DNA of 64,000 bases from Psammoneis japonica (lineage: Eukaryota). The stretch spans positions 1 through 64,000 of the forward strand of contig QPGO01000303.1 in NCBI GenBank assembly GCA_008632985.1. The letters run 5' to 3'. The stretch's first letter is position 1. Every line of letters starts with the position of its first letter. Shown here piece after piece: positions 8,137 to 32,243 of this stretch. The notes under the pieces are model-generated. The model searched no databases, was not told the DNA's origin, and saw nothing but the letters and a program-made list of their open reading frames with translations. The position numbers and the translations under genes were made by a program.

Positions 8137-9620
8137 ATGACGATGTTCACCGTGTCAAGGCGGCGGCATTGGCACGTCGCATTTGCCATACTATTGGCAT
8201 CATGCTTAGTATGTTCCATATATGGCATGCAAGATGCGGAAACTTGTGAGGATCCTTCCAATGGTGATTCTGGTTCGAATAATCATCAGCACTATCTTGC
8301 GGATTGTCGTGATGAGCATGACGAGTGTTCGGATTGGGCCTTGCAAGGACATTGTGAATCCGACAAGCATGGTGACTTTATGAAGTCTTACTGTCGCAAG
8401 AGTTGTCCAGATGTGTGCAATGATGGGTAAGGTGGTGCTGTATGTGTGTATTGATCTGCTTTCTGCTTCATACGAGTGCTGAATTGCTGAACTCATGCTT
8501 CTTCTCATGTGTTGTTACTTTATCAGATCGCTAGATTTGGGAGAGAGTCAGACTGCCACTGATGAAAAGACACGCGTTCTTATTGCCTCGTCTCTGAAAT
8601 ACTTGCAGACGGAAGTTAATGTCGACAAAAAGTACAAGCCCGGTGTACGAGCAAAGTGCAAGAATCTACACGAGACCTGTTCGTTCTGGGCGACGCTGGG
8701 GGAGTGCGAACAGAATCCAACGTATATGCGAGACAATTGTGCCTTGGCGTGCCAGTCTTGTGATTGGTTTGATGTCTCGTTGCGCTGCCCGTGGGATCCA
8801 AACAACATTACCGCAGCGTTGGAGCCTGGCGACTTGAATAAGATGTTTGAACGCATCACGACGGATCCAGAATTCAAACAGTACAATCCCACCATCTTGC
8901 TTCAACCACCGGACGGTCCTTGGGTAATAACCTTGGACGACTTTGTGTCAGAGCAAGAGTGTGACGCACTGATTGAAGCGGGAGGCAAATTGGGATACCA
9001 ACGATCCATGGGTGGAGCTCCGGAAACGGGTGAAAACGGAGAATACATCAGCCAAGTGTCAGAGTACCGCACATCCTATCAGGCATGGTGTCTGGACGAG
9101 TGCTACACAAGTGAGGCAGCCAAGAATGTTTCAGCACGCATTGAACGCGTGACTGGGATTGGCGAAACATATTCCGAGTATTTGCAACTCTTAAAATACG
9201 ATAAGGACCAGTACTACAAGGTACGTCGTGCAGGATGTCAGGATACGATCTCAAACAGTTTCGTTTGCCGGTACTTTCGCTAACCGACATTGTTCTCAGG
9301 TTCATCATGATTTCATCCCAACGCATGTGGAGCGACCCATGGGACCACGGCTACTGACTGTGTACATTTATTTAAATGAGCCGGAAGAAGGAGGAGGAAC
9401 AAGGTTTCCTTATCTTGGTGACGGCGGTGTGACGGTGCAACCCAAACGTGGTCGTGCCTTGATTTGGCCGTCTGTCTTGAATGACAACCCCATGAGTGAG
9501 GACAGTCGCACCCAGCACGAGGCCTTGCCTGTCATTGCCGGCCATAAATATGGAGCCAATGCGTGGATTCACATGGGTGATTTCAAAGCCGCCTTTGCTC
9601 GTGAATGCCATTACCAGTGA
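8137..9620 (+). CDS. Secreted ShKT-domain prolyl 4-hydroxylase, copy 1 (introns 8427-8526, 9221-9299)
   Basis: Signal peptide, two six-Cys ShKT domains, and 2OG-Fe(II) motifs HHD, RLLTVYIYLN, GGGTRFP, HEALPV and KYGANAW. GT-AG introns restore the frame. Confidence 0.88.
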
Positions 9621-9882
9621 GCATGCGGTAGTGCGCAGGCGAACTCTTTCTAGAGTGGCGACTCTTTGCTAGTAGAGGGTAGGAGATGTGCAAAGATGAA
9701 CAAATGCAATGCATTTCCTTTTTATATGTTCTCTAGCTAGTAGCATCTCATTCTACTCTTTCTCTCGCGACTGGAGCGTTTCTTAAAACACAAAGTGGGC
9801 ACTAACTGCGCAAATTGTGTGCATTCATGCACATATGAGCTGTGCAAGCCGATCGAAAGCTCTTGATCTCAGCCTTTCACTG

Positions 9883-10119
9883 GTGAATGTAACAGGGTCT
9901 CATGCAACATGCAACTCACCATTTCGGGTCCATGTGCCCAATCTTCCAAGTGGAGTCTGGTGGGAATGAAGATTGCCGCAAGCAAATTTGAAGTCACATC
10001 AGGGACGTGAATGTAACAGGGTCTCATGCAACATGCAACTCACCATTTCGGGTCCATGTGCCCAATCTCCCAAGTGGAGTCTGGTGGGAATGAAGATTGC
10101 AGCAAGCAAATTTGAAGTC
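9883..10119 (+). repeat. Tandem direct duplication, period 124 bp, spanning the host/decayed-DNA junction
   Basis: GTGAATGTAACAGGGTCTCATGCAACATGC...AAATTTGAAGTC begins at both 9883 and 10007. Confidence 0.85.
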
Positions 10120-13100
10120 CCGGCTGCTGCAAGAAGGACTCAACTCATGCTGTTGCTGGGTGCAAGGCCTGGATCCCCATCCTGTGCTGGAAATCCCAAG
10201 AATGCAATGGGTGATGGTGCAGTTCTCACCAGCTCCCGTGGCTTTGCCATGTGTGAACCTGACACTTGGGCGCAGCACCCAAGGAAGCTCCAGGAAAGGT
10301 GTTTGGAATTCATTGAGACAGAAACGACAGATGGCAAAGATGGAGAAGCGTTTGTTGCAGAAGAGTTCTGCAACCAACTGTTGAAGGATGACACAGTGTT
10401 TGCCAACATGCCCCCTCAAGATTGTTGAGAAGTGTTTGAATGCAATGGAGCAAAAGCTGTCAAGGCGTGCACGGATTTTCTTGAGGAGAAAGATGCAGAC
10501 AAGGCACAATGGCCTGATTTCCAGGCAGCTCAATGCAACAAAATCTTTGCACCATGGGACAAAAAGAAATCAAGGCAAAGAAGTTCAGGGCCGTTGCTTT
10601 GATGTGGTGTTTCCACATCTTAAACATGATTTGTTCAGTCGGTTGCCAGGCAAATGCATCAAGTGGGGCACGACATTTGACTTGGCAAAAAAAGACTGTG
10701 GATGACCCCAATTCAGAGGAAGACATCACGGCCTCAGCTGTTTGTTTTTTGGAGTGCATGGGCATGCAATTAAGTGGGCTTTTGCAAATTGGAGAATGAT
10801 GATGTGCGCCAGAAGCTTGGCCCCTTTCTCTGAAAACATTGTGGGTGGCTTGGGCAAACACATGTGGATGGAGTGGAATTTGCACACTCTGACACCTGCT
10901 GTGGTGGTTGCAAGGACAGCAAAGTCCAACATGAATGGGCAAAAAAATGCACACGAGTTGACACATGGTCCGGATCATGAGCTTCACAGGGCCTTCACTG
11001 CTGTGTTTGCATCCAAGAGTCTTGAGTTTGACACAGCCAGCAGCAACCACACACCCTTGAGCTCTTCAAAAAAGAACCCAAGGAGGTTTTGCACTCAAGA
11101 GAAATGGGAGTGCCAGTCATGCAGAAAAAGCAGAGGTGCAAGGACAAGACATTGAACTGCACACCAGACGAAGACACAACAGTGAGGGAAATTGAAGAGT
11201 GCTGCAATGACGTTGAGAAGGCAGAGGAAAAACTCAGAGATGAAAAAACATTCAAAGGAAACAGACACTTGAAATGCACTCTAAAGCCGGTGAAAGGGAA
11301 GCAAGGGGGGACAAAGGCAGAGGCTGATGACATGCTTCAGCACACTCAAAAAGGTTGCCATGAAGATCCACTTCCACACCAGACCAAATGAGCTTCAGGT
11401 GGGATCCCGACAATGAGCATTCAGACTTGGCAAGAATTTGTTCTGCACCACAGGGGGAGAGGTGTTCAACAAACAGGTGAGCCATCTTGTTTCGGACATC
11501 AGTCAATTGTTTTCTGGCGTTGCCAACAAAAAGCTGTGGCTTCGAGTGACAAGGTTCAACCTTGACAAGGACAAGCATTTGCTGGGCAACCAAACATTGC
11601 CTTTGGTTTCTTTTTGTCTGGTGGTGCAAAGATTTCATTGCACTGAGCTGCTTGGAAATCATGCCATTGTGCCTTGTCTGCATCTTTCTCTTCAATGAAA
11701 TCCACGTGCACCTTGACAGCTTTTGTTCTGTTGCATTCAAACACTTCTCGAAAGTCATGGGCCAGGTCAGCAAACACTGTCATCCTTCAACAGTTGGCTG
11801 CAGACTTCTTTTGTGACAAACACTTCCCCATCTTTGCCATCTGCCATTTTTGTCTCAATGAATTCCAAGCACCTTGGCCAGAGCTTCCTTGGATGCTGTT
11901 CCCAAGAGTCAGGCTCACGTGTGGCAAAGCCATGGGAGCCAGCAAGATCTGTGCCATCACCTGCTGCCTTTTTGGGATTTCCAGCACATTGACATTGCGG
12001 CAGGTTCCAGTGGCAGACAAGATGGAGATCCGGGTCTTGTGTCTGGCAACAGCATGAGTTGAATTCTTCTCATTGCCGGTTCTGTCATCATGCCAGACAC
12101 TCTTGTTGCTGCCACACCATGGACAGGGTGTCTTGATGCCCACAAGTTTGTGGCCATTTTTGTCAACATGCTCACAATGGATGTGTTTCATCCTCAACAA
12201 GAATGTCTCTGTCAAAAATGTCAGGAAATGCACAAAGCAAATGAGTCCCTGATGGGACTTCAAATTTTCTTGTGGCCTTCTTCATTCTTCCCACCAGACT
12301 CCACTTGGAAGATTGGGCATGTGGAGCCAAAATGGCCAGTTGTGCAAGACCCATCTGCTTGTGCTTCTCAGCTTGCACCTCTGGTTTTGCAACATGATGA
12401 GTGAAACCCTGGAGAAAGAACATGTGGATGTGCTTTTCCAGAGTTGTCCCATCACGCAGCTGCTTGCTTTTGGCGAATTAAATGAGCAATGCAATCATCA
12501 TCCAAAGAAGGAAACCAGTCAGACCTGTGCATTCAACAAATGCATCGGTCAGTTTCTGAAGGAGAATCTGTCTCATCAGGAGGTTTGGCCATGGTGAAAT
12601 GATGGGTGCATCAATGGTGCTGCCGCAATGCTCAACGCCCATTGTGTGCATGTTCACATTGTTGCTGCACCATCTTTGCAAAAACTGGCGTGCCTTTCAG
12701 CTTGTCAAAGATGCCGTGTCACTGTGTTGGAGATCATTGTGATTTTGTTGAATCTGTGCAGGACAATGCTGGGTTTTCTGCACTGGAAATTTTTCTGTTG
12801 ACGAGACTTTTCTGCTGAGGCTGCAACAAATTGCGCATGTTAAATGCAACAAAAAAGCACGCACATCAGACAGGTGCAAAATTTGTGCAGGCTCAATCCT
12901 TTTCTGCATCTGATCCAGCACAGGTCCTGGCATGTTTTTTGTGCTTCTGAATTGAATTTTTCTGTGCTCAACGACCCTTCAACCACTGGACTTGAGCAAA
13001 TCTCCATGGGTGGTTTGCTTGCTTGCTGCATCACAAAAAAAACGTTAAACACAACATTGTTTTGGAGCGCGCACCCACTGAAAGCTCGGGGGGGGGGGGC

Positions 13101-15240
13101 ATTTTTGCAACCTCTTTCACTCTTTCTGTTGCATCACTCAAGACAACGGTCAAGTGCTGCACCGACAATTTGGAAAAATGGCACATTGTGCAGAAGATGC
13201 AATGAGTCATTGATGACCAGGGTTTGCATGAAAGCAACAAATCACAGGAGCAAAATGCAGCTGCTGATGGAGAGAATCTTTGAGCATCAAAGCCAAGCTG
13301 ACTTTGCAGAAGCAAAAAGCCATCAAATTTGCTGCATGTGGATCCCCACCTTTCTGTCATCATTGAGCATCACAGGTGATGGAATGGGCCACCAGGTGAA
13401 TTTTGCCACCCTTGTTGAAATGACAAGATTCCACAATCATGCAATTGCCCAAGGCTCTGAGACAATTGTTGTCAAAAGGCTGGGAATCCAAAAGCAGACA
13501 TGAGCCAAAATGAAATTGTTGAAAAGCACGTTGTGCTTCTATTCCAACAACCAGCTCCAAACCAAAAAGAAAGAAAGGCTGTCATGTGCTGCCTTTGAGG
13601 CATTTGCACAACAAGCTGATGGATGGCAAGGTGATTTGACTTTCTGATTTTTTTTGCACTGGAAACTTCGTGCTGGCCACATGCATCATTGCTGAAAATT
13701 GGCGACATGATGGTGGTGTGTTGTTGCAACGATGGCGATGACAGCAACGTGTCCCAGAGTTTTTTGTCATTGCAGACATTTGGTTTGTTGAGTTTGAGAA
13801 TGCACTCAGTCATGAAAGTCCCCGAGAGCAACCTCTGTTTGAAAGCAAAACGTCGCACCAATGCCGAGCTCTGTTTTTCGATCTGTCACTGTTGTGCATT
13901 CATTGTTGAATGACTGAGACTTCGTCAGGGGGACTTTCTTTGCATGTTCATGTTTTGAACAGTGCAGTCAATCATTGTGACAAGTGCCCATTGCAAAGTT
14001 GTCCTGCAAGAGCTTGAGAAAAAATGCCATCGTCATCATCGGCATTGACGGCAATTTGTCGTGCAAATTGCAAGAAATGCACACGACTGTTGTCTGTCCA
14101 ACATTGCGCTGCTGTGCACTTGTTGTGCACATGCCTTAAAGAGCTCAGTGTGAGAGCACCCTGCAGGGAATGATTCAGTTGGTCTGGCATCCCTTGGAAT
14201 TGACACACATGCTGTTGAAACCTTGGGCAGGAATGTGAAGGAGTGGCTTGCCCATCAATCCAGAACAATCCCGAGTCTCAGCACAGCACTCAGGCTGGCA
14301 AATGTCATTTCCAGGCCTTCCAAATCTAGGTGCAACAAAGAGGAGCATTGCATCAACTTGAAAGACTTCAATTTCACTCCTCTGTCCAACACCATTGACA
14401 CATTGAAAGACAAGGCAAAACAAGGGGCAAGAGTTGACACCACAAGAGTGAAAGAGAAGCCAAAGGAGCGATGAGTCACAAAACAAAGGACAAGAAGCAC
14501 ACCGCCATTGCATCATGTGACAACCACAGGTGCATGTTGCCAGCTTGACAATTTGCCTCATGCTCTGTCACCCATTGCTCATGCACATGTTTTCACAAGC
14601 AAATGCTGCACATTCGAGCACAAGCCAAAAAAAAGGCAAAATGAAAGAAACACAGACAACATCAACCACATGTTTTGCAGCACACATGGCACTTGTCAAG
14701 ACTGGGCCAATGTGCACACATGACATGGACAAACAAGATGAATCTCAGGCACAACTCGCCCCATGGAAAGATGCTGCAACGCGATGGCACAAACAATGCC
14801 GCAATGCAGCACCGTGGTGTCTGCGACAAAAATGTGCAGAGGCTGGTGCAAAAATTGGTTTGCAAGTCATTCTCCACTTTTTGATTTTTGTTAACTGAAA
14901 AATTCAACGATCCGTGGGAGGTCTTTCCCTTCCTCTTCTTCCTGCTTTAATTTTGCAGACCTCCTGAGCTGGGAGTGGCAAATGGTGCTTTCATGATGAT
15001 GATGCAGCGGCATTGTCTTCAGTGCGTTCCTGCAGCCATGCCACAGCATGTGCTTCTTGATGTGACAACATGTGTTGGAAACTTTGGAAGAGAGCTGCCT
15101 CATTGGTGGCATCTCCAATGGTGTTGTTTTCAACATGATTTTATGCACAATGGCAGCGCAGATGGCAGAGCACCGCATCAGATTTCTCACCTCGGGTGCC
15201 TGGCGACGGACGGACAGTGCTGCCATTTTTTCCGAAACTC
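9897..15240. other. Heavily decayed, TpA- and CpG-depleted block (probable old transposon DNA)
   Basis: Only about 13 TA dinucleotides seen in 5.3 kb, and the sequence is TG/CA-rich with many Cys/His-rich spurious ORFs. The left edge is where similarity to the 3' flank of P4H copy 2 (23040-23198) ends. Confidence 0.75.
9918..12335. repeat. Diverged inverted duplication (about 9918-10580 versus 11596-12335)
   Basis: 10381-10580 matches the reverse complement of 11596-11790, and 9918-10005 matches the reverse complement of 12245-12335. Similar pseudo-ORFs occur on opposite strands (EKCLNAxEQKLSR...RKMQTRHNG). Confidence 0.8.
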
Positions 15241-15294
15241 CATATAAACAGGCCATGACGATGTTCACCGGGCGGCAGCATTGGCATTTCGCAT

Positions 15295-15551
15295 TGTGAG
15301 CTAATGGTTTAATTAGAACTAAGTTGACAAGTGGCCTTGTGATGAACACAGATGAACTAATTGTGATTACTTTGAATTTCGAAAAGGTGAGAAGACGAAC
15401 GTCTCAACAAGTGTTTTCCGATAAGTGTTTGAGATGTCTTCAACAATTTGGGGGCCGTACGTGTAAACAATTTGGGGCCATAGAAATCGAATATTGATAA
15501 TCGGATGTCGTAGATGTCGCGAGGCATAAATAATAGACGTCAATAGTCACA
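15295..15551 (-). repeat. 3' LTR of copia element (257 bp)
   Basis: Matches 21218-21471 with 4 substitutions and one 3-bp indel. Confidence 0.95.
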
Positions 15552-15573
15552 CTCCCTCATTCGATGAGATGGG

Positions 15574-18500
15574 TCACCAGCCGAAAAGCAAACGACGGAG
15601 CTTATAGAAAACCGCCTTAGGTAGCTGTTTCGTGAAGATGTCGGCTTGTTGATCGGCAGTACGAATAGGTTGAACTTTGATACGGCCGTTGGCGACTTCG
15701 TCGCGAAAGTGGTGAAGTATGACGTTGAAGTGTCGAGTGCGTGGGCGCATTTTGGGTACGCGAGCGATCTCCAGTGCGGCGGAGTTATCCTCGAACATCG
15801 TGCAATGCATGACAGGTGTCGTTTTCACATTAATGTTTCTCTCCTTGAGTTCTTCCAACAGGCACATGATAGATTTCACATGTCTGGCAGCTGTAGAGAG
15901 AGCAATGTATTCAGATTCTGCACTGCTGAGAGCAAACATTGTTTGCAGCTTGGAAGCCCAATGTAGGGGCACGTTTGCAAATTTGACAGCAAAACCAGAG
16001 CGAGAGCGAGCTGTATCAGGATGGTTTGCTGCGATAGCCTTGTCCCAGTTGCCACAAAAATCAGCATCAACATAGCAATCAAGGCCATATATGTCGTCTG
16101 GTTTGATGATGTATCCTTCATTTCGGGTGGCCAGTAGATATCTTCCAATGTGTTTGATGGCAGCGCCGTGAGAAGCTTTGGGATTCGACGTGAAGCGGGC
16201 GCATTGGTGAGTAGCATATGCAATGTCACCTCTTGTTGATTTTTCTAAGAAGTTCAGTTTGCCAATGACAGAGCGGTAGTTCCATGATTCCTGAAAAGGT
16301 GCACCATCCGGATCGGGTCCGATAAGTTTTGTAGTGCTTGCTGGGAGCTCGTGTGTTTTGGTATTGTTTGAATTCGAGTTGTTGCGAGTGCCAATAAGAC
16401 CAAGGTCTTGGAGAATACTGTCAATAAGTTGTGGTTGGTATAGTTTGAAAGAGCCGTCCGGTAACGTTTCGATTTTGACGCCGAGGTAGTCACCAATGTC
16501 GCCTTCATCGGATATACGTGTACGTGTACCGAGGTCCTTGATACATTGATCAATCTTAGCATCCGAAGGATCGAATATAAGACCGTCGTCAGTATAAACT
16601 AGGAATATGGTCGTTCCACGGTAGAAAACACATTCGTCGAATGAAGACTGTGTAAAACCAATGTCGAGTAGTACGTTGCGTAAGAATATAAACCACGTTC
16701 GTCCAGCGTCTTTTCCTCCATATATATTTTTCAATACTTCCAAACAATGCTTGTTACGATCCAAATTAGGAAAGTTGATGCCTCTTGGTAGTTCCATAAA
16801 GGTGGGCCTTGGAATGTCAGCGTGTGGATATGCCAATACAAAGTCAACTTGTCTTGATTTCCATTTGAAGAGGATGGAGAGAATAAGGAATAGACGGATG
16901 ATAGTCCAAGAAAGTGTTGGAGCATAGGTTTCCTCGTAATGTTTTCCTTTCTTCATTTTGTGTCCTCCCAAGTTGAGTCGACTTTTCCACTTGTATACTT
17001 TGCGTGTGCCGATACGTCGCTTGCGCTTCATAGACCATATTGCAGGAAGAATAGTCTCACCCTGTGGTACATCAGCCTTTTCAATAACTCGCCAATGTTT
17101 CCTATCGGTATGGTCTTGGACTTCTTTAACCATAGCTTTCTTGAATTCGTGAGCGTCTGGTTCGCGAAGAGCCTCGTGCATGTAGAGAGTGTCCGGGTCA
17201 TTGGAAGCTTTCATGCTGTACAAAATGGGGTCTTCTAGTTGATTTCGGTCGTCGTCGATGAGATACATGTCCTGGGCAATAGCTTCATAAGTGGTTGCAG
17301 CGTATGAGACAATATTTTGTTCACGTTGAAGTTGTGACTCAATGGCCCTTTGGGTCATTTGGACTTTACGACCAGAGCGAGTTGTGACCGTTGGTGTTGG
17401 CGATCCTGAGTCGGCTGCAGAAGTTTCAGAAGTCTCGTTTGTTGTTGATGGACCTCCCTCATTTGTTGGAGTAGCGGTTTCTGTTTGATCCGAGTGGCTT
17501 AGAGATGATCCTGTATCATTTGTATTGTCCATGTCAGTTGGTGGTAAGTCCGACACATCTGGAGTAGGAGCTGTAGTCATCTTACGTCTTGACTTGTCAG
17601 TTGTTTTTGCAGAGAATCTGACGCGTGCTTGTTTCTTGTAATGACACTTTTCTTGCCATGCACTTCGAGGGATGACGGATGAGCCTTTGACAGTCTCAAA
17701 TAGGTCGTCAAATTTGACATGGCATTGTGGAGAGGTAAGTCCTGTTTCAAGATTAAGGACAAGTGCTACAGATCTGGCGTGTCTGGGTGAAGGTCCGAGA
17801 TAAATGCCCACTCGTGCTCTTGTTTCCCACTTTGGTAGATGAGAGCCTGACTGCAACTTGTTCTTTAACACATGTGCAGGACATCCAAAAGAGTGGAAGT
17901 GTCGTAGTTTTGGTTTGACTTGCACGTTTGCGAAGAGCTCTATTGGAGATTCGTTTCCAGGAGATCTGGCGGTGTGATTGTGCACGTTGTTGGCATAGCG
18001 TATAGCATGTGGCCACAAGTGGTGATCAACAGCGTTTGGCCAGCGATGGTGAGCGTGTATAAGTTGTGTTCTCGCTTGCTCTTGTAGGTCTCTAATGCGT
18101 TTTTCTGCTCTGCCGTTTTGAAAGTGTGCATTGACTCCGCAATGGGTTACATGCTGCCCTTGTTGACGCACCGATTTGATGAATGCGTTGTCAGCGAATC
18201 GTCCATTGTCGGCGTGATGGTGTTGGACACGGACTCCGAGGGAGCGGGCAAATGCTTCATAAGCAACTTTGGCGTGTAGCGTTTCTTCTGAGGTGATCGA
18301 TTTTTGTAAGTGCACGAATGACAGGTCGCTACAGTGGTCGACGAAGACCGTGACGTAGCGATGTCGTTGACGTGTTGGTGTGCCCTTGAGTTGAGCTATT
18401 AGTCCAGGCGTGGTGGCGTCGAGTTGGTCGACAGACACTACTTGGCCGGCTTCAGTGGCTTTGAAAATTTTGGTTTGTTGTGTGCCCTTGGTTCGCCATG

Positions 18501-19755
18501 GTACCTTGGTGGCTTTGCCACAGCGGCATGCAGCGCAGATGGGTACGCGGCAATCAGCGAGGCGCTTGGGTGGGTCTCCGGAGTTAGCCATGTGCTTAAT
18601 GCGTGAGAATGGCAAGTGTCCGAGTCGGTAGTGCCAAAGTAGTAGTTCGTTGGTAGGAGTCAGGTCGTCTGGGAATGTTTGGTCCTCGACGACTGGTGCG
18701 CCAAAGTTCATATCCGAGAAGTCCACCGTGTTGGGTGTCGTGGCTTCTGGTGTAGCCGTAGTTGAGTTTGTAGGCGTTGTAGCAGCTGTTGAGTTGCTGT
18801 TGTCGATGGCCTCGTTGAACGTGTGACGTGCAGTTGGTGCAGTGGTCTGTTCTTCAGGTAAGTCTTCAGGTTCGGGTTCGATGATGTGTGCATTTTGAAA
18901 CACTTTAGGTTCTCGTGCTTGCGAGTTGTACTCACGCTCAAATTCGTTGTGCTTGTCATAGGATGGAGCGGAGCGGAAGACTGGTACGTTTGCCTTGGAG
19001 AGCGGCATAGTTCGAGAGCATTTCTCGTCTTGCCATCGAAGTGTCGTTCGATCGTGAAGTGTCTTTTCATAAGTACCATCCGGATTGTTGGAAATTGGTG
19101 CGAGTACTTGTGCCAAGTGTTGTGGCGAGAGAAGACGAATTGGAAGCGTAGGTACGTAGTGCGTGTTCGGCATGATAAATTCATGAAGTAAGCCATCGTC
19201 GTCTTCAACCTTCCATTTAACTTTGCCCTTGAAGGTCGATTTGGCGTTACCACTGGCAGCTTCCACGACAACGTTGACCTTTGTTGGCGGTTCAATGAAG
19301 TCGTCTTTGTTGTTGGTCATGCAGTAGGAGGCATGGTTATCAACTCCGATGTTGAACGAGTCTGTGTCGAAGTTGTGATCGCGGTGACCGTCGCAGTTAC
19401 AGCCATGGGAGCAGGATGCGGTATGGCATGAGGCGTGCTGCGACTTGAGACCCATTAGTCGGCAAGTGGCTTTGTTGCACATAATGAAGTGTCGGCGTTT
19501 TCGTCGGATATAACGCATGTTGGTCTTGAGATAGTTTGGTTTCCTTGGTGGTCTACGACTTCTCAGGAGATGTTCCGTCATTCGTCGTAACCAGGAACGC
19601 AGGAGTGGAAAGGAGTGGAGCCAGTTCAGCAGTTCCACCGTAGCGCAGTAGATCATGTTGAGTGCGCAGAAGAATGGCAGGAAGACTGAGCATGCACCGC
19701 AGAACAGCCACAACCGTAAGTACAACTTGACTCGTAATGCAGTGTTGGCGAGTGC
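15574..19755 (-). CDS. pol: Copia pol (protease, GAG-pre-integrase Zn finger, integrase, RT, RNase H)
   Basis: VDNHAS protease, WHYRLGH...CAAC, VSVDQ, ADNG, NGRAE, WKSRLN, QVDF, VYTDD, YVDADF, AESEY, EDNS and ADIFTK motifs. In frame with gag after a single TGA. Confidence 0.92.
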   Translation of the reverse strand, partial: ALANTALRVKLYLRLWLFCGACSVFLPFFCALNMIYCATVELLNWLHSFPLLRSWLRRMTEHLLRSRRPPRKPNYLKTNMRYIRRKRRHFIMCNKATCRLMGLKSQHASCHTASCSHGCNCDGHRDHNFDTDSFNIGVDNHASYCMTNNKDDFIEPPTKVNVVVEAASGNAKSTFKGKVKWKVEDDDGLLHEFIMPNTHYVPTLPIRLLSPQHLAQVLAPISNNPDGTYEKTLHDRTTLRWQDEKCSRTMPLSKANVPVFRSAPSYDKHNEFEREYNSQAREPKVFQNAHIIEPEPEDLPEEQTTAPTARHTFNEAIDNSNSTAATTPTNSTTATPEATTPNTVDFSDMNFGAPVVEDQTFPDDLTPTNELLLWHYRLGHLPFSRIKHMANSGDPPKRLADCRVPICAACRCGKATKVPWRTKGTQQTKIFKATEAGQVVSVDQLDATTPGLIAQLKGTPTRQRHRYVTVFVDHCSDLSFVHLQKSITSEETLHAKVAYEAFARSLGVRVQHHHADNGRFADNAFIKSVRQQGQHVTHCGVNAHFQNGRAEKRIRDLQEQARTQLIHAHHRWPNAVDHHLWPHAIRYANNVHNHTARSPGNESPIELFANVQVKPKLRHFHSFGCPAHVLKNKLQSGSHLPKWETRARVGIYLGPSPRHARSVALVLNLETGLTSPQCHVKFDDLFETVKGSSVIPRSAWQEKCHYKKQARVRFSAKTTDKSRRKMTTAPTPDVSDLPPTDMDNTNDTGSSLSHSDQTETATPTNEGGPSTTNETSETSAADSGSPTPTVTTRSGRKVQMTQRAIESQLQREQNIVSYAATTYEAIAQDMYLIDDDRNQLEDPILYSMKASNDPDTLYMHEALREPDAHEFKKAMVKEVQDHTDRKHWRVIEKADVPQGETILPAIWSMKRKRRIGTRKVYKWKSRLNLGGHKMKKGKHYEETYAPTLSWTIIRLFLILSILFKWKSRQVDFVLAYPHADIPRPTFMELPRGINFPNLDRNKHCLEVLKNIYGGKDAGRTWFIFLRNVLLDIGFTQSSFDECVFYRGTTIFLVYTDDGLIFDPSDAKIDQCIKDLGTRTRISDEGDIGDYLGVKIETLPDGSFKLYQPQLIDSILQDLGLIGTRNNSNSNNTKTHELPASTTKLIGPDPDGAPFQESWNYRSVIGKLNFLEKSTRGDIAYATHQCARFTSNPKASHGAAIKHIGRYLLATRNEGYIIKPDDIYGLDCYVDADFCGNWDKAIAANHPDTARSRSGFAVKFANVPLHWASKLQTMFALSSAESEYIALSTAARHVKSIMCLLEELKERNINVKTTPVMHCTMFEDNSAALEIARVPKMRPRTRHFNVILHHFRDEVANGRIKVQPIRTADQQADIFTKQLPKAVFYKLRRLLFGW

Positions 19756-21156
19756 TCATTCTTGATCTGATGCGTCTTGTACGCCAACATTTGCCACAGA
19801 GGCAGTCAGGTCTGATTCGGCCTTGTCCTTGACGGTGGAGCAGTCCTTGGTAAGGTGAGCGGACCAATGCTCGTGGTTCTTGCACCATTTGAATGTTTTA
19901 CCCTCAACCGTCTTGGTGTGCGGTTGTCCGTCTTTAGGAGCTGCGTTGCGCCAGGCATGTTTTCCGTAGAAGAGGCATTTCTTGCATCCGTTGGATAGGA
20001 TCTTGAACCTCTGGCGCCTGTTGTTATTGTTGGAACCCGATTCTTTCGTTTTGTTGCCCTTGGTGGAGCTCTGAGTGGTCTTGTTGCTGTTGCCAGTAGA
20101 GCGTGGAGCATTGCGAGCTTTGGTGTCATGAAGGGTCTTGACTTCGGCTTGTGGAGCTACGATGGTCTCTTGCTCTTTGGTTGGTGCCATCCACTTTTCA
20201 GATTCAATTAGGATCTTGCACTTGTTTTCAGCCTTGAGCATGAGAGCATGTGCATCGAGATCTGATCCATCTTCACAGTCGCTCTTGTGCTTCTTGATGG
20301 ACTCGATGAATTCTGAGTCGGCGCACGTGAGGCAAGCCTTGAACACGTTGTTCAGCAGATCGGAACCAGTGTGGCCGCTAGTGGCAAGTTTCTTTTCCAA
20401 AGATTTGACGTGGTTGTTGAAAGTCTTGATGTTTTGACCGTCAACTGCAGCCATGCAAGCGTCTAGATTGCCCATTTGGTCACGGATTGCCGAGACAGCA
20501 GCCCTTGTGTCGACTTGAGCCTTTGACAGAAGTGCCTTGAGGTGGGCTGCACCGCATTCTTCGTCTCCAACAGTGCACTCAGCCTTTTCTTCCGTTGCCA
20601 TGATGGTCTTGGAGGGCTCGTCTGGGGTGCTCTGGAGACATGCGAGGAGTTGGCAGTCATTCTGCGTGTTGCGTTGCGCCAGATTGAGGCATGCAGCGGA
20701 TGCCGTGCGAATCTGCTCAGCTGAGATTTGTCCACACTCGGTGAGCATGTCCTTGTTCTCGGCTGGCAAAGCAGGAGCTGCGCCATGGTTGATGTCGATC
20801 GTGAGAATGTCGTTCCAACCATTGGTTTTAGAACGGACCGCGAGTTTTTCTAGGAAGACTGGGATGTTGGGCGATTCAAGACTGAACTGGGTGTCCAACG
20901 GCTTGGTCGCGTCTGCGAAAACGAGCGCGTCACCTTTCTTGGTGCAGTCCAAAACGTCTGCACGGGCCAGCGCTGGTGACTTGGCGAAAGGTCCTGGAGC
21001 AGCTGCTGCTGGTGGTGCAGGCATGTTGTTCACAATCGGCTGGACAGCCGCCTGGACAGCTTGTGCGATGGCGTTAGCGAGCGCGTCAGCATCCGCCACA
21101 ATGAGGTCTTGAAGTTCCTGAGCACGTCTTTGTGCTCCTCTTGTTAAACGGCGCAT
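19756..21156 (-). CDS. gag: Copia gag, strongly TpA-mutated
   Basis: 466-aa ORF just inside the 5' LTR with a WCKNH..W..H...C knuckle; only one Tyr remains. Confidence 0.85.
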   Translation of the reverse strand: MRRLTRGAQRRAQELQDLIVADADALANAIAQAVQAAVQPIVNNMPAPPAAAAPGPFAKSPALARADVLDCTKKGDALVFADATKPLDTQFSLESPNIPVFLEKLAVRSKTNGWNDILTIDINHGAAPALPAENKDMLTECGQISAEQIRTASAACLNLAQRNTQNDCQLLACLQSTPDEPSKTIMATEEKAECTVGDEECGAAHLKALLSKAQVDTRAAVSAIRDQMGNLDACMAAVDGQNIKTFNNHVKSLEKKLATSGHTGSDLLNNVFKACLTCADSEFIESIKKHKSDCEDGSDLDAHALMLKAENKCKILIESEKWMAPTKEQETIVAPQAEVKTLHDTKARNAPRSTGNSNKTTQSSTKGNKTKESGSNNNNRRQRFKILSNGCKKCLFYGKHAWRNAAPKDGQPHTKTVEGKTFKWCKNHEHWSAHLTKDCSTVKDKAESDLTASVANVGVQDASDQE

Positions 21157-21217
21157 CTTGTTGGTTCGGAGAGAACGTTGCTGGTTCGATTAAGAACACT
21201 TTGTCGCAGAGGAAGCG

Positions 21218-21471
21218 TGTGAGCTAATAGTTTAATTAGAACTAAGTTGACAAGTAGCCTTGTGATGAACACAGATGAACTAATTGTGATTGCTTTGAAT
21301 TTCGAAAAGGTGAGAAGACGAACGTCTCAATAAGTGTTTTCCGATAAGTGTTTGAGATGTCTTCAACAATTTGGGGGCCGTACGTGTAAACAATTTGGGG
21401 CCATAGAAATCGAATATTGATAATCGGATGTCGTAGATGTCGCGAGGCATAAATAGACGTCAATAGTCACA
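21218..21471 (-). repeat. 5' LTR of copia element (254 bp)
   Basis: TGTGAGCTAAT...GTCACA followed by TSD CGCAT. Confidence 0.95.
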
Positions 21472-23557
21472 CGCATTTGTAATAGTATTGGCATGCGTAG
21501 TATGTTCCATAAATGGCATACAAGATGCGGAAACTTGTGTGGATCCTGCCAATGATGATGATTCTGGTTCGAATCATCAGCGCTATCTTGCGGATTGTCG
21601 TGATGAGCATGACAAGTGTTCGGATTGGGCCTTGCAGGGACATTGTGAATCCGATAAATATGGTGACTTTATGAAGTCTTACTGTCGGAAGAGTTGTCCA
21701 GATGTGTGTAATGATGGGTAAGGTGGTGCTGTATGGGCGTGATGATCTCCTTTCTGCTTCATACCGTACGGGGTATGTTGTACTGAACTCATGCTTCTTC
21801 TGACAAATGTTGTTTCTTCATCAGATCGCTAGATTTGGGAGAGAGTCAGACTGCCACTGATGAAAAGACACGCGTTCTTATTGCCTCGTCTCTGAAATAC
21901 TTACAGACTGAAGTTAATGTCGACAAAAAGTACAAGCCCAGTGTACGAGCAAAGTGCAAGAATCAACACGAGTTTTGTTCGTTTTGGGCAACGCGGGGCG
22001 AGTGCGAACAGAATCCAACGTATATGCGAGGGAATTGTGCCTTGGCGTGCCAGTCGTGTTATTGGTTTGATGTCTCCTTGCGCTGCCCGTGGGATCCAAA
22101 CAACATTACGGCAGCGTTGGGGCCTGGCGACTTGAATAAGATGTTTGAACGCATCACGACGGATCCAGAATTCAAACAGTACAATCCAACCATCTTGCTA
22201 CAACCACCGGACGGTCCTTGGGTAGTAACCTTGGATGATTTTGTGTCGGAGCAAGAGTGTGACGCACTGATTGAAGCGGGAGGCAAATTGGGATACCAAC
22301 GGTCCAAGCATGCGGAAAGGGGTGTAAACGGAGAATCCATAAGCCAAGTGTCCGAGTTGCGCACATCTTATCACGCATGGTGTCTGGACGAGTGCTACAC
22401 AAGTGAGGCAGCCAAGAATGTTTCGGCGCGCATTGAACGTGTGACCGGGATTGGCGAAACATATTCGGGGTATTTTCAACTCTTAAAATACGAGAAGGAC
22501 CAGTATTACAAGGTACGTTGTGCAGGATGTCAGGATGAGATCTTGACTTTGCGTTGCCGGTACTTTCGCTAACAGACATTGTTCTCAGGTTCATCACGAT
22601 TTTATCCCAACCCATGTCGAGCGACCCATGGGACCACGGCTACTGACTGTGTACATTTATTTGAATGAGCCGGAAGAAGGAGGAGGAACAAGGTTTCCCT
22701 ATCTCGGTGACGGCGGTTTGACGGTACAACCGAAACGTGGTCGTGCCTTGATTTGGCCGTCCGTCTTGAATGACAAACCCATGAGCGAGGATAGTCGCAC
22801 GCAACACGAGGCCTTGCCTGTCATTGCCGGCCATAAGTTTGGAGCCAATGCGTGGATCCACATGGGTGATTACAAAGCCGCCTTTGCTCGTCGATGCCAT
22901 TAGTCTACCAGTAGTATGTGTACTCGGAGTAATGCGTAGGCGAACTCTTTCTACAGCGGTGACTCTTTGCTAGTAGAGGGAAGCAGATGTATGAACACAA
23001 ACAAATGCAACGCGTTTCCCTTTTTATGTTCTCTAGCTAGTAGCATCTCATTCTATTCTTTCTCTCGCGATTGCGGAGCGTTTCTAAAAACACAAAGTGG
23101 ACAGTAACTCGCAAATTGTGTGCATTCATGCACATTTTTAGGTGTGCAAGCCGATCGAAAGCTCTTGATCTCAGCCTTTCAATGGTGAATGTAACAGGTG
23201 ACTGCTGGCAATGCTTCCTTGAGGAATTAGGAGCGACAAACTCCAAAACAACAATGAGACTTGACTGAGAGATAACCTTACCGGTGGGAAATCCAAAATT
23301 CGGAACAATCCGTTCGGACGAAGGGCAGACACAATAGATGATATGTAGGCATTTAATGTCGTATAAAACGTAATACAAACTGAATGATGCACTCCGGTAA
23401 TTAATAAACATTGAAATTTTCAACGGACAAAGATAATCTTAATTCATTTTTATCTATGTTCGATTTCAAATATTACCTTTTCTCAACGGACAAAGATAGG
23501 TCAAAAAGCAAGAAAGAAACACGACGCAAGCAACTGCAACAACTGCGACACCCTACC

Positions 23558-24847: not shown

Positions 24848-25077
24848 AAACACTCGCATGTACATCGCATGTCGACGGAGAAGAAGTAGAAGAGAGTGAG
24901 CAACGACGACTACGATCCTACAGCCTGCTCTAGCTAGCGTGAGAGCTGTTGCATAGGGAACACTAGACATCGGTAGATCTTATTCATGAACTAGGTTAAA
25001 CAAAGAAGGTGCAGTCTCGCGCATTTAACAAGTTCTGGAGTCATCCAAACCGTGCGCACAAAGAAATGGAGGCTCCA

Positions 25078-26791
25078 TCACCCGTCCTCCGCCAAACCAT
25101 TTCGAAAGGCGCACTTTTCATATTCAACACGGGTCGCACACACGTACTTGTGCTTCCCATCGGCAGCAATCTTGGTCAATTCATCAAACTCTTTGTGCCA
25201 CTCGGGTGTGGACAAGTTGTAGCCCAACTTGGGCAACAAATCCGACGGATTGAACCCTTTCAATTTTTCCTCAGTCTTAGGCTCACAAATAAAGCACAAC
25301 AAGTGCAGACTGACGTGGGTTGGAATGGATGTGTTGTCCTTGTAGTTGGTGTGCTTGAGGAGCCAACAACGCGCTTCCCCGGGGATGGCATTTTTGCACA
25401 TGCCACAGCGCCGCCCAGCTCGACGGGTCGAGCGTCGAGTTGGAGTATTGTCCTGAGTTTCATTGTCACCATTCCAATCCCTTGGTGTTTCTTCTTCAGT
25501 TGAATCCGTCGCATCATCAGAGGCGATGTCCCCGCTAGTCTGGACACCAACAGAGGAACCAGCGCGAGGCAAGAAGGCCGGGAGATCATTCTGAAGGTCC
25601 CCGGGGGTACGAGCAACGTTGTCGTCCTGAAAGTTTCTAGCCGCAGCAGCTTCCACATCATTTTGATGCAAAGTTTGAAAATTGAGGCGGTTGAAGAAGT
25701 CCGTGGCGATGGCAAGGCCGTTGCAGAAAGAGGACACAGTGACGGACCCAATCTTGACGAGTGCTTGGCCTCGTGCGTCCGACGAGTTCAGCACATAGGG
25801 CTTGAAGCTGCAAACCAAAGTTTGCGCTGCCTTGACAATGGCGAAATAAGCACTAACGGTTAACAAGGCGGAGAGGACCACCACACAAACCAAATTAAAA
25901 TCGAGGTTTGAGGACTCGCTTGGCCATTGGCACGTCAATACCTTTGTAAATAACGGAGAGCAGAAGTTTGTAAGGAACGTCAAAAGCTGAAAATTGCACA
26001 AAACAAAAGACACTATGTGAAACAGACCTTGAGCGCATTGATGAAATCCACTGCCGTCAGCGGCCCCAGCATCATGAGGAGACAAAAACGGACTTGTCTT
26101 TGGGGCGATGTAAACAAAAAGTTGATGCACTGAGTGCCAACTACGAGGACCGACGAGATGGTGCTTGAAGGAGGAAATACAATGGCAGGAGGAAAGAAGG
26201 GCACTTCTAACTGAAAGAGCCGAGACATCTTGAGCAAGACCCGAACCATCAACGACTGTTCCATCAGGGCCTTGAGAAGGACTCCGACAAACTTCGCACA
26301 AGGAACCCGTACCAAGAAGCACTCGCAAATGGAATCGAGATGCTCGTAGAAGCAGTGACCGAGTAATCCATACAAAAGCCCAAGCTTGATCATGCGGAAA
26401 GTTTGATGAGAATCATACTCGTACCAAACATGAGAGCAGGCGGAATCGTCATGGGAATCCTTGTCTTGCGAGCCAATCTGGATCCACACGTCGACACACG
26501 CGAAGACAATCACGCTTGAAAGTAAAGAACGCGACAAATTGCCAGTAAAGAAAGACTCTGAGAGACCGCAACAGTCATCCTTGGGAGTAGGAGGAATGTC
26601 TTGCTCTTGAGTTTCGATGGTGTCATCATCTTCGGAGAGGACAGTCCCGAATTTTTGTGTGTTCTCTTGAGGAGCAGGAATGTCTTGCTCAAGAGTTTCA
26701 ATGGCTGACCCAGAAGAGTGTGCATTCTCTTGCTCGTCCCAACCACGCTTATTGTCTGACTCTCCCCTCTGCTCTATGTAGGGGGCTGACA
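25078..26791 (-). CDS. Membrane protein with divergent Mpv17/PMP22-like region and C-terminal CxxC...HxxC motif (intron 26027-25942; may start at 27036)
   Basis: D..IQ, YD...TFRM..LGLLYGLLGHCFYEHLD, K..MEQ and Q.INF pattern. A phase-0 GT-AG intron links ORF 26013-26843 to ORF 25078-26328. Confidence 0.45.
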
Positions 26792-27109
26792 TGGCCTTCG
26801 TTTCGAAGGAATCGCAACCGTTGCGTCGGGAGTGGTAACGCACGAGAATGATGGGAGGCGGTGTTATTGGCTTCCTGTGTTACCATGATGGGAATGCTTT
26901 CGCCATTCCCACTGGGCTGCGGCGCAAGAGGCACGTTTCGTTGTGACGCAGGTCCCGCTGGACGAACCTCACGTCTACGCTTCTGCTGCGCACCACCATC
27001 GTTACCTGCCTTTCGCTTCTGCCGTGATACGACCATCTTGCCGAACAGAAAACAAAGAAAGGCTATCTATTCAGTTCAATTCAATCCAAAATGCTATGCA
27101 ACCAAGCTG

Positions 27110-28225: not shown

Positions 28226-28954
28226 CTACAACTGCTTCGGTAGCTGAGCAACCTCCTGCAAAAACCGAGTCCGCTCCTCCTTGCTCGCAGTATCCACTCC
28301 GTACAATCCCAACCACTGAACGGTCGCATTTGGGCATACGGAATGCCGAATAGCATTGGAAATCATTCGCCGGCCATTGTCTCCCGCCATTGTGACAATG
28401 GCACGAGTCGCTCCATAGGTGGAAATGCCAACGATGCGTTCAACGTTGTTTAGCTTGGGCACGAGTCCGAGCGTCGCTGCTCGTCCTTCGGTCGAGGGAA
28501 ATTCCCATGTCTCTCCCGACACGAGCGTTCGATCAAAGAATCCCTTCAGACTTGCAGGAGTGTTCATCCACCAGGTTGGATACACCAACACCAACGTGTC
28601 GCACCACTTCACCAGATCTAAATGCGTCTGTACTTCCTTCGAGAGTATCTTTTGATCAGAAAAGTAATTTTCTCGCTCATACTGACTCATATTTGGACGG
28701 TAACATTTCGAAGGATCGCCATGCTCATACTTGTAAAGTGAGATTCGTTCCACCGTGTGGCCAGCATCGACGGCGGCTCTTTCAAAGGTGTCGGCAATAC
28801 ACGCACTCAAACTGTCTGGAACGGGGTGAGAATGGACCATTAGAATGCGCCTCTGTTCCAATTTTTCGGGAGGCGGAGGAGGGATATAAGAGCTCAACTG
28901 ATTCAGCTTAGTATGGACAAGGCGGACGCCGGGGATGCTGTAAAGAAGCGCCAT
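28226..28954 (-). CDS. Flavodoxin-fold NAD(P)H dehydrogenase (quinone), MdaB/NQO-like
   Basis: VHSHP..DSLS, D.LVLVYPTWW...PASLKGFFDR and STYG motifs. Confidence 0.88.
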   Translation of the reverse strand: MALLYSIPGVRLVHTKLNQLSSYIPPPPPEKLEQRRILMVHSHPVPDSLSACIADTFERAAVDAGHTVERISLYKYEHGDPSKCYRPNMSQYERENYFSDQKILSKEVQTHLDLVKWCDTLVLVYPTWWMNTPASLKGFFDRTLVSGETWEFPSTEGRAATLGLVPKLNNVERIVGISTYGATRAIVTMAGDNGRRMISNAIRHSVCPNATVQWLGLYGVDTASKEERTRFLQEVAQLPKQL

Positions 28955-28999
28955 CGTCGAAGGGAGCGTTTGGCTTCAGATCCTGAAGATTTTTGTAAT

Positions 29000-30190
29000 T
29001 GCGCGTGGCGCGTGTTTTGTGCGACATGGCAGCCCGCTCTGGCCTGCGGTCAAAGCCGTTTTCAATCCAAGCAAGGGTCAAAAGGCATTGCTCAAATGGC
29101 GTTGGCAGCTGTCCACAAAGTTCGTGCATTGGCTCTTCATGATCCAGCCAGCACATTGCATGGACAAACTCATTGTGACATCATGTGTCGCCAGTCACAG
29201 ACATCCGATTGATTCCAACAACATGCTTCGCCTTCAACAGGGTGTCAACATGTCAGGTTCATCTGACCCAGTGGCAGGTGGCTCGCTCTTTTTGTCCTCA
29301 CACAAATTCATCAAGCAAACAGTGTGCTCCATCAGATCAATCTGCTTGTCAACTGGTGAGGCGGACTGGCTGGGTGGTCTTTTGTCGCTTTGCTTGGGGT
29401 GTTCATTCATGCCGACATTGTCCTCGACGGTTGCACTGCAATCATGCCACTTGCACCTCCTCCTTGAGACTGCCTCCACAATCTTGTCCTCCAATGATTT
29501 TTGGTGCCATAGCATCTTCAAGTCATCAGCTGCCTGAACATGGCTCAGCACCACAGCGCGCTGATCATCGCCACGACGTCAGCCTTCTTTGGTGTGACCA
29601 TTGCCAACACAAATCTTCTTGTGAACAAATTGATGTGGAATCATGTGAGTGCACTTGCAGCACTTCAATGCCAGGTCATGTGCCTTCTTCTTGATGACAG
29701 CCAGGTGGAAATGATGCCAAGAAGCTGCATTCTTGGCCTTGCACTTGGGGCAATTGACAGGGCTTTGCTCGCAGCAGGTTGAGACCCTTGACTGCGTTTG
29801 TCAAAAATCTCTTTGCTTGTGTCACCCAATGTCTGCTTGCCACTGGGGTGATCAACACAACAGTCAAACTTGGATTGCTTCAGCTTGCCGAAGATCTGCT
29901 TTCTCACACCTTCCCTCACCACTGGCATTTGGGCACACGAGCCTTGAATGTCACCGAGACTCCCAAACGCTTCAGAGATTTTCTTGCAGGAAGCCTGCCA
30001 CAAACGCATTTGTGAGATGACATGTTGCCACTCCCAAAAAGCAGGGGATGAACTCCAACCCATTAGTGCTTTCCGTCATCGACAACAACTGCCAGCACAG
30101 GCAACAGGCTCTTCACGATGCTGTCGCTGTTGAACAGCACACAAATGCACAAATTGTGGGGGACAATCTGGAAAGACGCTGACTCCGTCA
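29000..30190. other. Isolated 1.2-kb TpA-depleted island (probable decayed insertion)
   Basis: Only two TA seen between 28997 and 30192; TG/CA-rich and flanked by normal-composition DNA. Confidence 0.65.
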
Positions 30191-30777
30191 TGTAACAATC
30201 ACAATTTTCCAAAATTCATATCGGGAGCACATGGCAGGCATGCCGAACCATCGTGATGTGATGTTTGCTTTGCGGCGGGAGAGGCGCGAAAATTTCGCAG
30301 TTGCTTCCGCACTGCAACTATTAGCGCGCAACACTCGCATTCAACATTATTCGGTACTATCATATTGTATTACGGTATACCGCCGCTGCTGCGAATTCTC
30401 ATTGAGACAGGTTTATGTTTTGTCTATGTATCTACTGGCTGATCATGCTGCCAATGGGCTGGATATTAATCTCGTTGTGATCAATGTACAGCAGCTTCAA
30501 AAGTGATGCAACCTACAGTTGAGGTGTTTAGTTCGAGGTCGGTACTTGCGCACCCTCTAGCTAGCGATCTCGAGCGCACCACTGTTGTCTTCCGAGCCGA
30601 CAAAGGCGTGTCACAAATCAATGTCTATGTCAAAGACATACTGCAGCAGGGTACCTATTACCAAGATGTACCCAGGCCATCAATCTGATACCGAGACATC
30701 CTCCCAGGTTCCACCAATCAAATTGGTTGAATTAACCTAAGTAGAATACCCGTTGCTTGCTCATTACAACTTTCTTG

Positions 30778-31971
30778 CTAACCCCTCATATAAGGAACAA
30801 TGTGCTTTGAAGCAAATGAGCGAACGATTTCGTACTGTTCACTTTCGTCAACCATATCTAACAGGTCGAGTTCGTTCGCAACGTCTCTGTCAGCTGGTGG
30901 TGCAAATAGACTCAACGCACTGGCCATGCTCATTTGAGCACCTTCACCCCCATCAGCAGCGCCTTGCTTGTTTTGCTGTATTCGACCACCACTTCCTGAG
31001 GAAGAGCCAGTATCAGTTCCAGGTGTTGAATGCTGGTCTACCCCATCTGATCGTGAACGCTTTGAATCATGGTCCTTCGAGTGGTTATCATCACGATCAA
31101 ATTCCCTTCGCGCCCTCTTGTTCTTGACGACATCATCCAAAACCGCCTGAAATGGTTGCCGATCAGCAAAGGTGGTCGGGAGGGTGTCTCTAACTGAAGT
31201 GTCGTAAAGGCTATCAAGAAGATATTTTGCAGCCGCTGTGGCTTCTCCACCATCAAGACAGAGCTTATATAGAGCCATCTTTAAATCATCCTCACCTCTT
31301 GCAAACCAAAAGAACGTCCACTTCTGGTTTAAATCTGTCAACACGGAAACAACGGCATGGTTGAGATTTAAATAAGACGCTGCAAAATGTTCACCAATCG
31401 TCTTTGGAGTGTGGTCCTTTTCTCGCAAGTTCTCGGGTGTCTTCAGCTCAAGTAGAGCTTCAATGTTGTTCCGAATTGCTGCGTTGCGAACGTGTTCTAT
31501 TTTTGCGATTACAACATCCGTAGTTCCACTTATTTTTCGGCTCTCCGTCAATTCCCTGAGTAGTTCTACCGTTAACAGCTTCCTGTTTGACTGGGCATCC
31601 GCCAAATCATAACGAGCTGGTATCTGTAGCATATTCTTGAGGTAAGACATATATGCTGTTCGATTTTCCATACAATCTTCGTAACCTGTCTGCCACGAAA
31701 ACCCATCGATGTGCTGCGAAAGAGCAGGTTTATTTGACCAAGAGGCCCCTTTCACAGGCAAAACAAGCATGTCCATCAGGTCATTCTGTGCTTCATACGT
31801 TGCATCTGAAAGCACAATTGTTTTCTTTTTCCTTAAATAATCTTCCGCCATAAGCTCAAGACCGGCCTTCGCCGTTTCAGAAAATTGCGGCGGTTGCAGC
31901 AGCTGCTGCTGCTGCTGCTGCTGCTGCTGTTTGAAGTGATTGAGGAGCGTCTTGCCGAGTATCACGGTCAT
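30778..31971 (-). CDS. Crinkler-like protein with PD-(D/E)XK nuclease-type domain; present start codon lies in the gypsy LTR
   Basis: ISGTTDVVI...LLELK and VLTDLNQKWTFFWF motifs resemble CRN C-terminal REase domains; polyQ from a CAG run at about 31897-31929. Confidence 0.6.
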   Translation of the reverse strand: MTVILGKTLLNHFKQQQQQQQQQLLQPPQFSETAKAGLELMAEDYLRKKKTIVLSDATYEAQNDLMDMLVLPVKGASWSNKPALSQHIDGFSWQTGYEDCMENRTAYMSYLKNMLQIPARYDLADAQSNRKLLTVELLRELTESRKISGTTDVVIAKIEHVRNAAIRNNIEALLELKTPENLREKDHTPKTIGEHFAASYLNLNHAVVSVLTDLNQKWTFFWFARGEDDLKMALYKLCLDGGEATAAAKYLLDSLYDTSVRDTLPTTFADRQPFQAVLDDVVKNKRARREFDRDDNHSKDHDSKRSRSDGVDQHSTPGTDTGSSSGSGGRIQQNKQGAADGGEGAQMSMASALSLFAPPADRDVANELDLLDMVDESEQYEIVRSFASKHIVPYMRG

Positions 31972-32243
31972 CTATATTCATTCGTATATTCATTCGTGGG
32001 TGTCAGCCTGGTGTCAAAAGTGTCAAAAGGATGTCAACGATGACACTTTCTAGAAACCTCTTCTCCTTTCTCGATACATCTCGATGCCTCTCGAAAGATT
32101 GTTTCTTTATATTTCTACGCGGTTTCTTAGTATTAATTCTACGTGATTTCGGAGTAGCCGAATCTCTTTCATTTCTTCTCACAACATTAGCAACAGTCAA
32201 CTTTACAACACTACTTTGTGCTATTACTTGGCGCCACTTGGCA
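31953..32243 (+). repeat. 5' LTR of gypsy element (TpA-retaining copy)
   Basis: Colinear with 36565-36855; 15 substitutions, no indel. Confidence 0.95.

Follow-up and report, generated by a model that had tools for sequence, protein, structure and literature searches.

In the diatom Psammoneis japonica, A to G and T to C transitions, nearly all of them at TpA, have erased this dinucleotide from long tracts of mobile DNA, and they do so in a defined sequence context. We examined the first 64,000 nucleotides (the window) of contig QPGO01000303.1 (C304) of the 91-Mb genome, together with further copies of its Gypsy and Copia retrotransposons and a sample of the genome at large. The preferred site is 5'-(not T)-A-T-[A]-Y-(not A)-3', the bracketed adenine being the one that becomes G; the 5' T matters ~100-fold and the 3' pyrimidine 3–4 fold, and TTTAAA is untouched. 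The process is regional, with host genes spared, and we read it, with slightly better than even confidence, as the work of a host enzyme, best seen as a chromatin-guided DNA adenine deaminase that rewrites silent repeats after their insertion. Along the window, TA is bimodal: the observed/expected ratio is ~0.5–0.7 in genes and 0.00–0.18 in three blocks (9897–15240, 28950–30200 and 36900–49100), in all of which CA/TG is raised and CG lowered.

Flanking context of the mutated TpA

An earlier note on this DNA had proposed, from 17 changes between the long terminal repeats (LTRs) of two elements, that the mutator prefers TAY to TAG and TAG to TAA, with TTAA resistant. Recounted on the A-to-G strand, these numbers are exact: 14 changes are in TAY, 3 in TAG and none in TAA. 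Both LTR pairs lie outside 9897–15240. The Gypsy pair (31953–32243 and 36565–36855) contributes 13 TA changes (12 TAY, 1 TAG), along with 2 adjacent non-TA changes, and the Copia pair (15295–15552 and 21218–21472) contributes 4 (2 TAY, 2 TAG). Set against 80 strand-site opportunities, 50% of them TAY and 25% TAA, the probability of at least 14 of 17 in TAY is 0.006 and that of none in TAA is 0.008. Across 15 LTR pairs, these two and that of copy L045 included, TAY was mutated at 71 of 726 sites and TAR at 18 of 506 (odds ratio 2.9, P = 3e-5), with no difference between TAG and TAA (9/280 vs 9/226).

Rates were estimated from aligned copies of each family. From 40 matches to the Gypsy LTR, 20 loci were fetched and 20 copies, including that of the window, were aligned; L048 and L050 were not aligned, and the rate work, from which the diverged L045 and L049 were excluded, rests on 18 copies. 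A scan of metagenome data with the pol protein of Gypsy yielded 3 distant loci among 75 candidates and was not used. For Copia, 6 copies taken from the window and 9 fetched loci were aligned (L087–L089 being dropped as partial or diverged); L081 and L084 have many events in common. In columns other than TA and CG, the Gypsy copies are related in a nearly star-like manner, with 2–10 private changes each, and their mean pairwise difference there is 0.007, compared with 0.257 in TA columns. A competing-risk model with local intensity was fitted, with a bootstrap over sites. Polarisation from singletons alone was dropped in favour of per-site counts, since it gives too low a count at hot sites, where many copies are mutated. 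Counts of alignment cells overstate independence because copies share inherited events, a problem of which the LTR pairs are free.

The two families gave closely similar rate ratios at the base after the mutated A (+1), relative to A: T 4.46, C 3.74 and G 1.33 (0.93–2.09) in Gypsy, and T 4.81, C 4.36 and G 1.50 (0.92–2.47) in Copia. TAY exceeds TAR by ~3–4 fold, a difference well supported by four data sets. The further step from TAG to TAA is the weakest of the proposed order: it is not seen in the LTR pairs and is a trend in the two families, with intervals that include 1, although the genome survivors support it. The motif is also wider than had been claimed. At the base before the T (−2), C, G and T reach 0.42–0.64 of A in both families; at −3, T is at 0.47 in Gypsy and 0.62 in Copia; and at +2, A is lowest, the other bases standing at 1.7–2.2 in Gypsy and 1.2–1.5 in Copia, where the intervals touch 1. 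TTAA sites survived best in both families (0.87). No preference for TACG was found in either family: in Gypsy TACG was mutated in 172 of 739 cells (0.23), against 204 of 674 (0.30) for TACC and 296 of 909 for TATC, and in Copia the values were 0.22 for TACG and 0.30 for TACC. A clean palindromic RTAY motif was rejected, the effect of G at −2 being absent in Copia.

The TA that survive genome-wide provide an independent test. We divided 28 arbitrary 10-kb stretches into 560 bins of 500 bp, called depleted those with four TA or fewer, and used normal DNA as a stand-in for the ancestral sequence. Depleted bins numbered 238, with observed/expected ratios of 0.05 for TA and 1.76 for CA. The NTAN words were not equally depleted (chi-squared 459, depleted vs normal bins). 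TTAA made up 85 of the 362 survivors in depleted bins, compared with 241 of 5731 TA in normal bins, and RTAY only 6 of 362. Relative survival fell from 0.38 for TTAA through CTAA/TTAG (0.16), CTAG (0.09), GTAA/TTAC (0.09), CTAC/GTAG (0.06), ATAA/TTAT (0.04) and ATAG/CTAT (0.02) to below 0.01 for RTAY. With two exposure parameters left free, the Gypsy rates predicted these survivors with a log-likelihood of 296, as against 189 for the +1 base only and −1 for a flat rate; the fit over-predicts CTAG (45 vs 24) and under-predicts TTAA (60 vs 84), and when the TAG/TAA ratio is freed its profile peaks at 2–2.5.

Resistance of TTAA is likewise well supported by four data sets, but the fully resistant word is TTTAAA, which is undepleted (23 vs 22), and not TTAA as such, which is depleted where A-runs are lacking (16 vs 100). 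CTAG, also named by the earlier note as an unfavourable survivor, is barely enriched (26/362 vs 272/5731). As a protected word it was rejected: none of 60 was mutated in the LTR pairs, but 22 of 57 cells were in Copia. In the block at 9897–15240 (5344 bp), 13 TA remain and most are indeed TTAA (8 of 13, against a genic share of 43/1243; P = 2e-9), with the T of the TA at 10621, 10771, 12479, 12841, 13046, 14137, 14892 and 14948. The other five are GTAA, CTAA, CTAT, CTAG and TTAT, one each. In the other blocks of the window YTAR accounts for only 22 of 45 survivors.

Mode of action and candidate agents

TA in the 18 Gypsy copies had become TG or CA in 1730 cells and had undergone transversion-type changes in 39, almost all of the latter in three columns. 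Mutation is patchy on a scale of ~0.5–3 kb, the state being autocorrelated to ~600 bp, and long untouched runs lie beside saturated ones. Of hot TA sites, 1389 of 2161 were mutated (~0.5 per strand), whereas A to G outside TA in cold patches was found in 5 of 9433; this places the excess at about 1000-fold over background, a rough ratio from copies and not a measured rate.

The mutation is post-insertion and regional, as the inequality of LTRs that belong to one element makes plain: changes divide 0/13, 10/0 and 12/0 between the two (P = 1e-8), and in the window's Gypsy all 13 lie in the 3' LTR (36565–36855), which adjoins a saturated block. Around half of the 18 Gypsy copies (in the series L031–L047) have the last kb, 3' LTR included, untouched and a heavily mutated interior. 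A model in which an ADAR- or APOBEC3-like enzyme edits the RNA or cDNA of elements as they retrotranspose would suit the retroelements affected and the two editase-domain genes in the genome, yet it is largely refuted and very improbable, since the LTRs of one element differ, the strands are alike (minus/plus 0.91 in Gypsy and 0.95 in Copia; 0.83, 0.70–0.99, in a six-position Gypsy fit) and erasure extends to a foldback element that is not of LTR type and to a deaminase pseudogene. That pseudogene, at L080:1315–1773 (G000:C151), is copied from a guanine-deaminase-like host gene, has decayed and lies inside TA-erased DNA; host pseudogenes are thus affected too.

We give almost no weight to a basecalling or assembly artefact, or to ordinary selection against TpA. 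Selection could not produce one-sided LTR differences. Repeats are hard to polish, but in short-read run X1, which may be the source sample and hence no second strain, 0.74 of sampled words from 9000–15600 are present and contigs carry the TA-erased sequence (537 bp with no differences, 432 bp with 2); among the 19 differences listed inside the block none creates TA. A further run, X3, had a share of 0.00. This match excludes a basecalling artefact.

Outside TA, A to G changes are some 8-fold more frequent in hot patches of Gypsy (82/18975) than in cold ones (5/9433), while non-CpG G to A is flat (23/12706 vs 13/6359), as are transversions. These off-target changes share the +1 bias towards a pyrimidine (43 vs 17 sites in Gypsy, P = 2e-4; 41 vs 20 in Copia, P = 0.002), which strengthens the reasonable inference, already drawn in the earlier note, that an enzyme lies behind so defined a context. 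By preceding base they number 21 mutated sites in 10492 cells for AA, 15 in 7002 for CA and 23 in 9825 for GA. The lack of an AA preference argues against polymerase eta. An error-prone polymerase of the eta or iota kind that misinserts G across from T, either in patch repair or when heterochromatin is replicated late, is unlikely as the agent. It would draw on the WA to WG errors that eta makes through dGTP opposite T (PMC11507097, accessible text), on repair patches that the co-occurring CpG decay could start, and on same-strand doublets at TATA (69 of 94, with 48 expected); opposed to it are AA being no hotter than CA or GA and ~100-fold below TA, the flat transversions in Gypsy hot patches, the small number of CG losses (149 cells) beside 1730 TA losses, and the lack of strand-coordinated tracts.

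We propose instead that a host enzyme may convert A:T to G:C in the genomic DNA of silent, repeat-rich domains once elements have inserted. Chemically, a zinc deaminase, putatively recruited by repressive chromatin, would deaminate adenine to hypoxanthine, and the hypoxanthine would be fixed as G at replication, with one or two neighbouring hits per event over many generations. A single agent of this kind, slow and acting in silent chromatin, would read the −1 and +1 bases separately. Elements might be disabled through missense change, above all loss of tyrosine, and through erasure of TATA-like signals. TA to TG or CA can create no new stop codon, and the tyrosine fraction is 0.002 and 0.006 in mutated open reading frames (ORFs), as against 0.019 and 0.043 in two host ORFs. 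In favour of the deaminase we count that one rate rule holds in two families and predicts independent survivors. On the same side stand the near-exclusive transitions, the off-target A to G with its pyrimidine bias, the regional pattern acquired after insertion, the same-strand doublets at TATA, a genome search that gave no MPG glycosylase or TET/JBP match, and the TpA signature shared with Bigelowiella natans (see below).

Several observations weigh on the other side. Sequence does not reveal which of the two paired bases, A or T, is altered. Copia hot patches show raised G to A and transversions, less than A to G. CpG decay tracks TA loss between bins (Spearman 0.67), but the link within copies is not significant (odds ratio 1.8, P = 0.14). 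The TACG preference is not seen. Single-stranded deaminases often leave strand-coordinated clusters; none was found beyond 2 bp, nor any strand bias per copy, although slow build-up over many divisions would hide them. Finally, the deaminases found appear to be housekeeping or APOBEC-like, and none is tied to the mutations.

These deaminases come from a search of the genome with the profiles PF00383, PF14437, PF02137, PF18778, PF18782, PF12851 and PF02245 and one protein query. It returned dCMP, RibD, guanine-type, TadA-like and ADAT2-like deaminases, labelled in part from known motifs, as well as two editase-domain genes and one APOBEC-like gene. The last is a single-copy AID/APOBEC-like ORF with intact zinc ligands (L111:1063–2019, minus strand; G000:C2 ~247,040–247,990), of a small unnamed family for which 10 representatives fall at E ≤ 1e-10; we did not find the start exon of the ORF. 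The APOBEC family is known for cytosine. Tad1/ADAR editase-domain genes are present at two loci (L101 on G000:C40 and L103 on G000:C79), where one ADAT1 would be expected. No match to MPG glycosylase was found, absence in such a search being no proof. Matching dCMP deaminase loci with equal scores on G000:C41 and C317 (L071, L072) hint at duplicated haplotypes in the assembly.

Two further schemes share much of the evidence. Oxidised thymine can mispair, and hydroxymethyl- or formyl-uracil in 5'-R-T-A-3' pairing with G would be formally the same mutation on the other strand, so that all of the context data fit; the genome search gave no Tet_JBP candidate, which is no proof of absence, and we regard this route as quite unlikely. 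The other would proceed in two steps, a symmetric mark on the palindromic TpA, such as N6-methyladenine, being followed by enzymatic deamination. The context is partly mirrored (A at −2 with T at +1; T at −3 with A at +2), as a duplex readout would give, but the mirroring is not complete (the value for G at −2 being 1.5 in Gypsy and 0.9 in Copia) and the off-target hits fall at non-palindromic VAY with the same +1 bias; it seems to us distinctly improbable.

Elements of the window

The block at 9897–15240 consists of decayed nested repeats (TA observed/expected 0.01–0.06, CG 0.20–0.36); it and its repeats are given without strand. None of 12 ORFs tested in it had a Pfam match at E < 0.05, and a six-frame look was also without a family. 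Where its relatives retain TA, the window has TG or CA in 129 of 186 cells, overlapping loci being counted twice. At 9912–12342 lies an element of foldback or terminal-inverted-repeat type with long inverted arms, its family unassigned; the arms (10183–10578 and 11597–11988) are 82% alike, with 10 CA/TG doublets and TA in neither arm, and identity as an LTR retroelement was rejected. A dispersed repeat of ~545 bp occupies 13595–14140 and has many copies at 75–87% identity, and a second is present as pieces at 14123–14977 and 13220–13503. At the left edge of the block, 9883–9995 and 10007–10119 form a tandem duplication of 113 bp, which is recent because it is 98% identical at the edge of an old erased block.

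The flanking ShK/prolyl-4-hydroxylase gene (8178–9896, plus strand) is 90% identical to 21472–23198 and served as a control duplicate: it is not hypermutated (TA to TG 16/282, AA to AG 15/479), with the caveat of selection on genes.

A young, partly mutated Copia element (15295–21472, minus strand) has a TA-erased patch at ~20000–21000. An in-frame stop between gag and pol (19756–19758) is shared by all copies aligned there, and read-through is possible. An X1 contig joins across the insertion (15289–21472), so only one haplotype may carry it; alternatively, the contig could be due to the gene duplicate nearby. Contigs of run X2, which is listed as 'DNA?', skip GT..AG segments at the host intron 9218–9298 and at 16205–16271 and 19852–19936, the last two on the plus strand, antisense to the Copia ORF (region 15864–20488); this suggests spliced antisense transcripts from the family. 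In the young Gypsy element (31953–36855, plus strand) ~60% of TA sites are mutated and a stop at 33049–33051 is private to the window's copy. Of the remaining erased blocks, also without strand, 28950–30200 retains 4 TA and 36900–49100, which includes Copia remains, retains 41. Depletion is intermediate at 25000–27000 (0.33) over an ORF (25081–26412) without Pfam match, possibly a partly mutated element.

Comparison with known systems

Repeat-induced point mutation (RIP) of ascomycetes likewise erodes repeats on both strands by context-specific transitions, and makes TpA from CpA. The direction here is the opposite (TA 0.05 and CA 1.76 in depleted bins). RIP is triggered by homology and strikes both copies, whereas here a 90%-identical host duplicate is spared, LTRs are unequal and no new stop codons arise.

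Polymerase eta shares A:T to G:C change with a TA hotspot in the accessible text of PMC11507097, but AA is not favoured here and selectivity for TA is ~100-fold. Methylation of CG in diatom transposons by DNMT5 (PMC9998398, in part) bears on the loss of CpG from these same domains; it explains CG to TG or CA only, which is far slower than TA loss.

As for TadA, whose parallel with the mutator the earlier note had raised, the wild-type enzyme needs UACG, with a strong 5' U/T preference, and TadA-8e shows no clear downstream preference on RNA (PMC12296453, accessible text). The A to G outcome and the 5' T fit; TACG is not preferred, however, TAT equals or exceeds TAC, G at +2 is not favoured and a pyrimidine at +1 matters. 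Without a TACG preference, strand bias or strand coordination beyond 2 bp, the parallel is partial only, and identity with TadA is not shown by these sequence comparisons. The accessible text of PMC12398605 has nothing on +1 context, and we found no paper on 'PyAPy'.

The closest likeness is to the viral inserts of the chlorarachniophyte Bigelowiella natans, for which the preprint of Mettrop et al. (bioRxiv 10.64898/2026.01.13.699255), as far as its main text goes, reports A to G and T to C at TpA only, ~1000-fold, and likewise proposes deamination of A by an enzyme not yet known. That main text does not treat flanking context, the words diatom, trinucleotide and context being absent, though the mutation table in its supplement may be relevant to the motif. 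A literature search with thin coverage of subscription journals turned up no paper that deals with TpA hypermutation in diatoms or with its flanking context.

Such a process distorts LTR dating, since TA changes make up 89 of the 135 substitutions in the 15 LTR pairs, and with it repeat annotation and codon statistics. Our rate table offers a fingerprint for testing candidate enzymes as well as the mutation list of B. natans. If such a natural DNA adenine deaminase exists, it would add a new branch to genome defence and be relevant to base editing. More tentatively, and at rather less than even confidence, we suggest that diatoms and chlorarachniophytes share, or twice evolved, a defence by a silent-chromatin-guided DNA adenine deaminase that is strand-unbiased, reads (A)T[A]Y and has here rewritten ~40% of the genome.

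The process thus works like the TpA mutator of B. natans, and is neither RIP nor, by the WA test, polymerase eta. The B. natans mutator and the present one both change TpA to TpG or CpA on both strands, regionally, in foreign or mobile DNA and ~1000-fold. They differ in host and extent: two viral regions with 124 clusters in the main text of that 2026 preprint, the only printed case that we found, and here, in an unrelated alga, transposons on a genome scale, in 238 of the 560 sampled bins.

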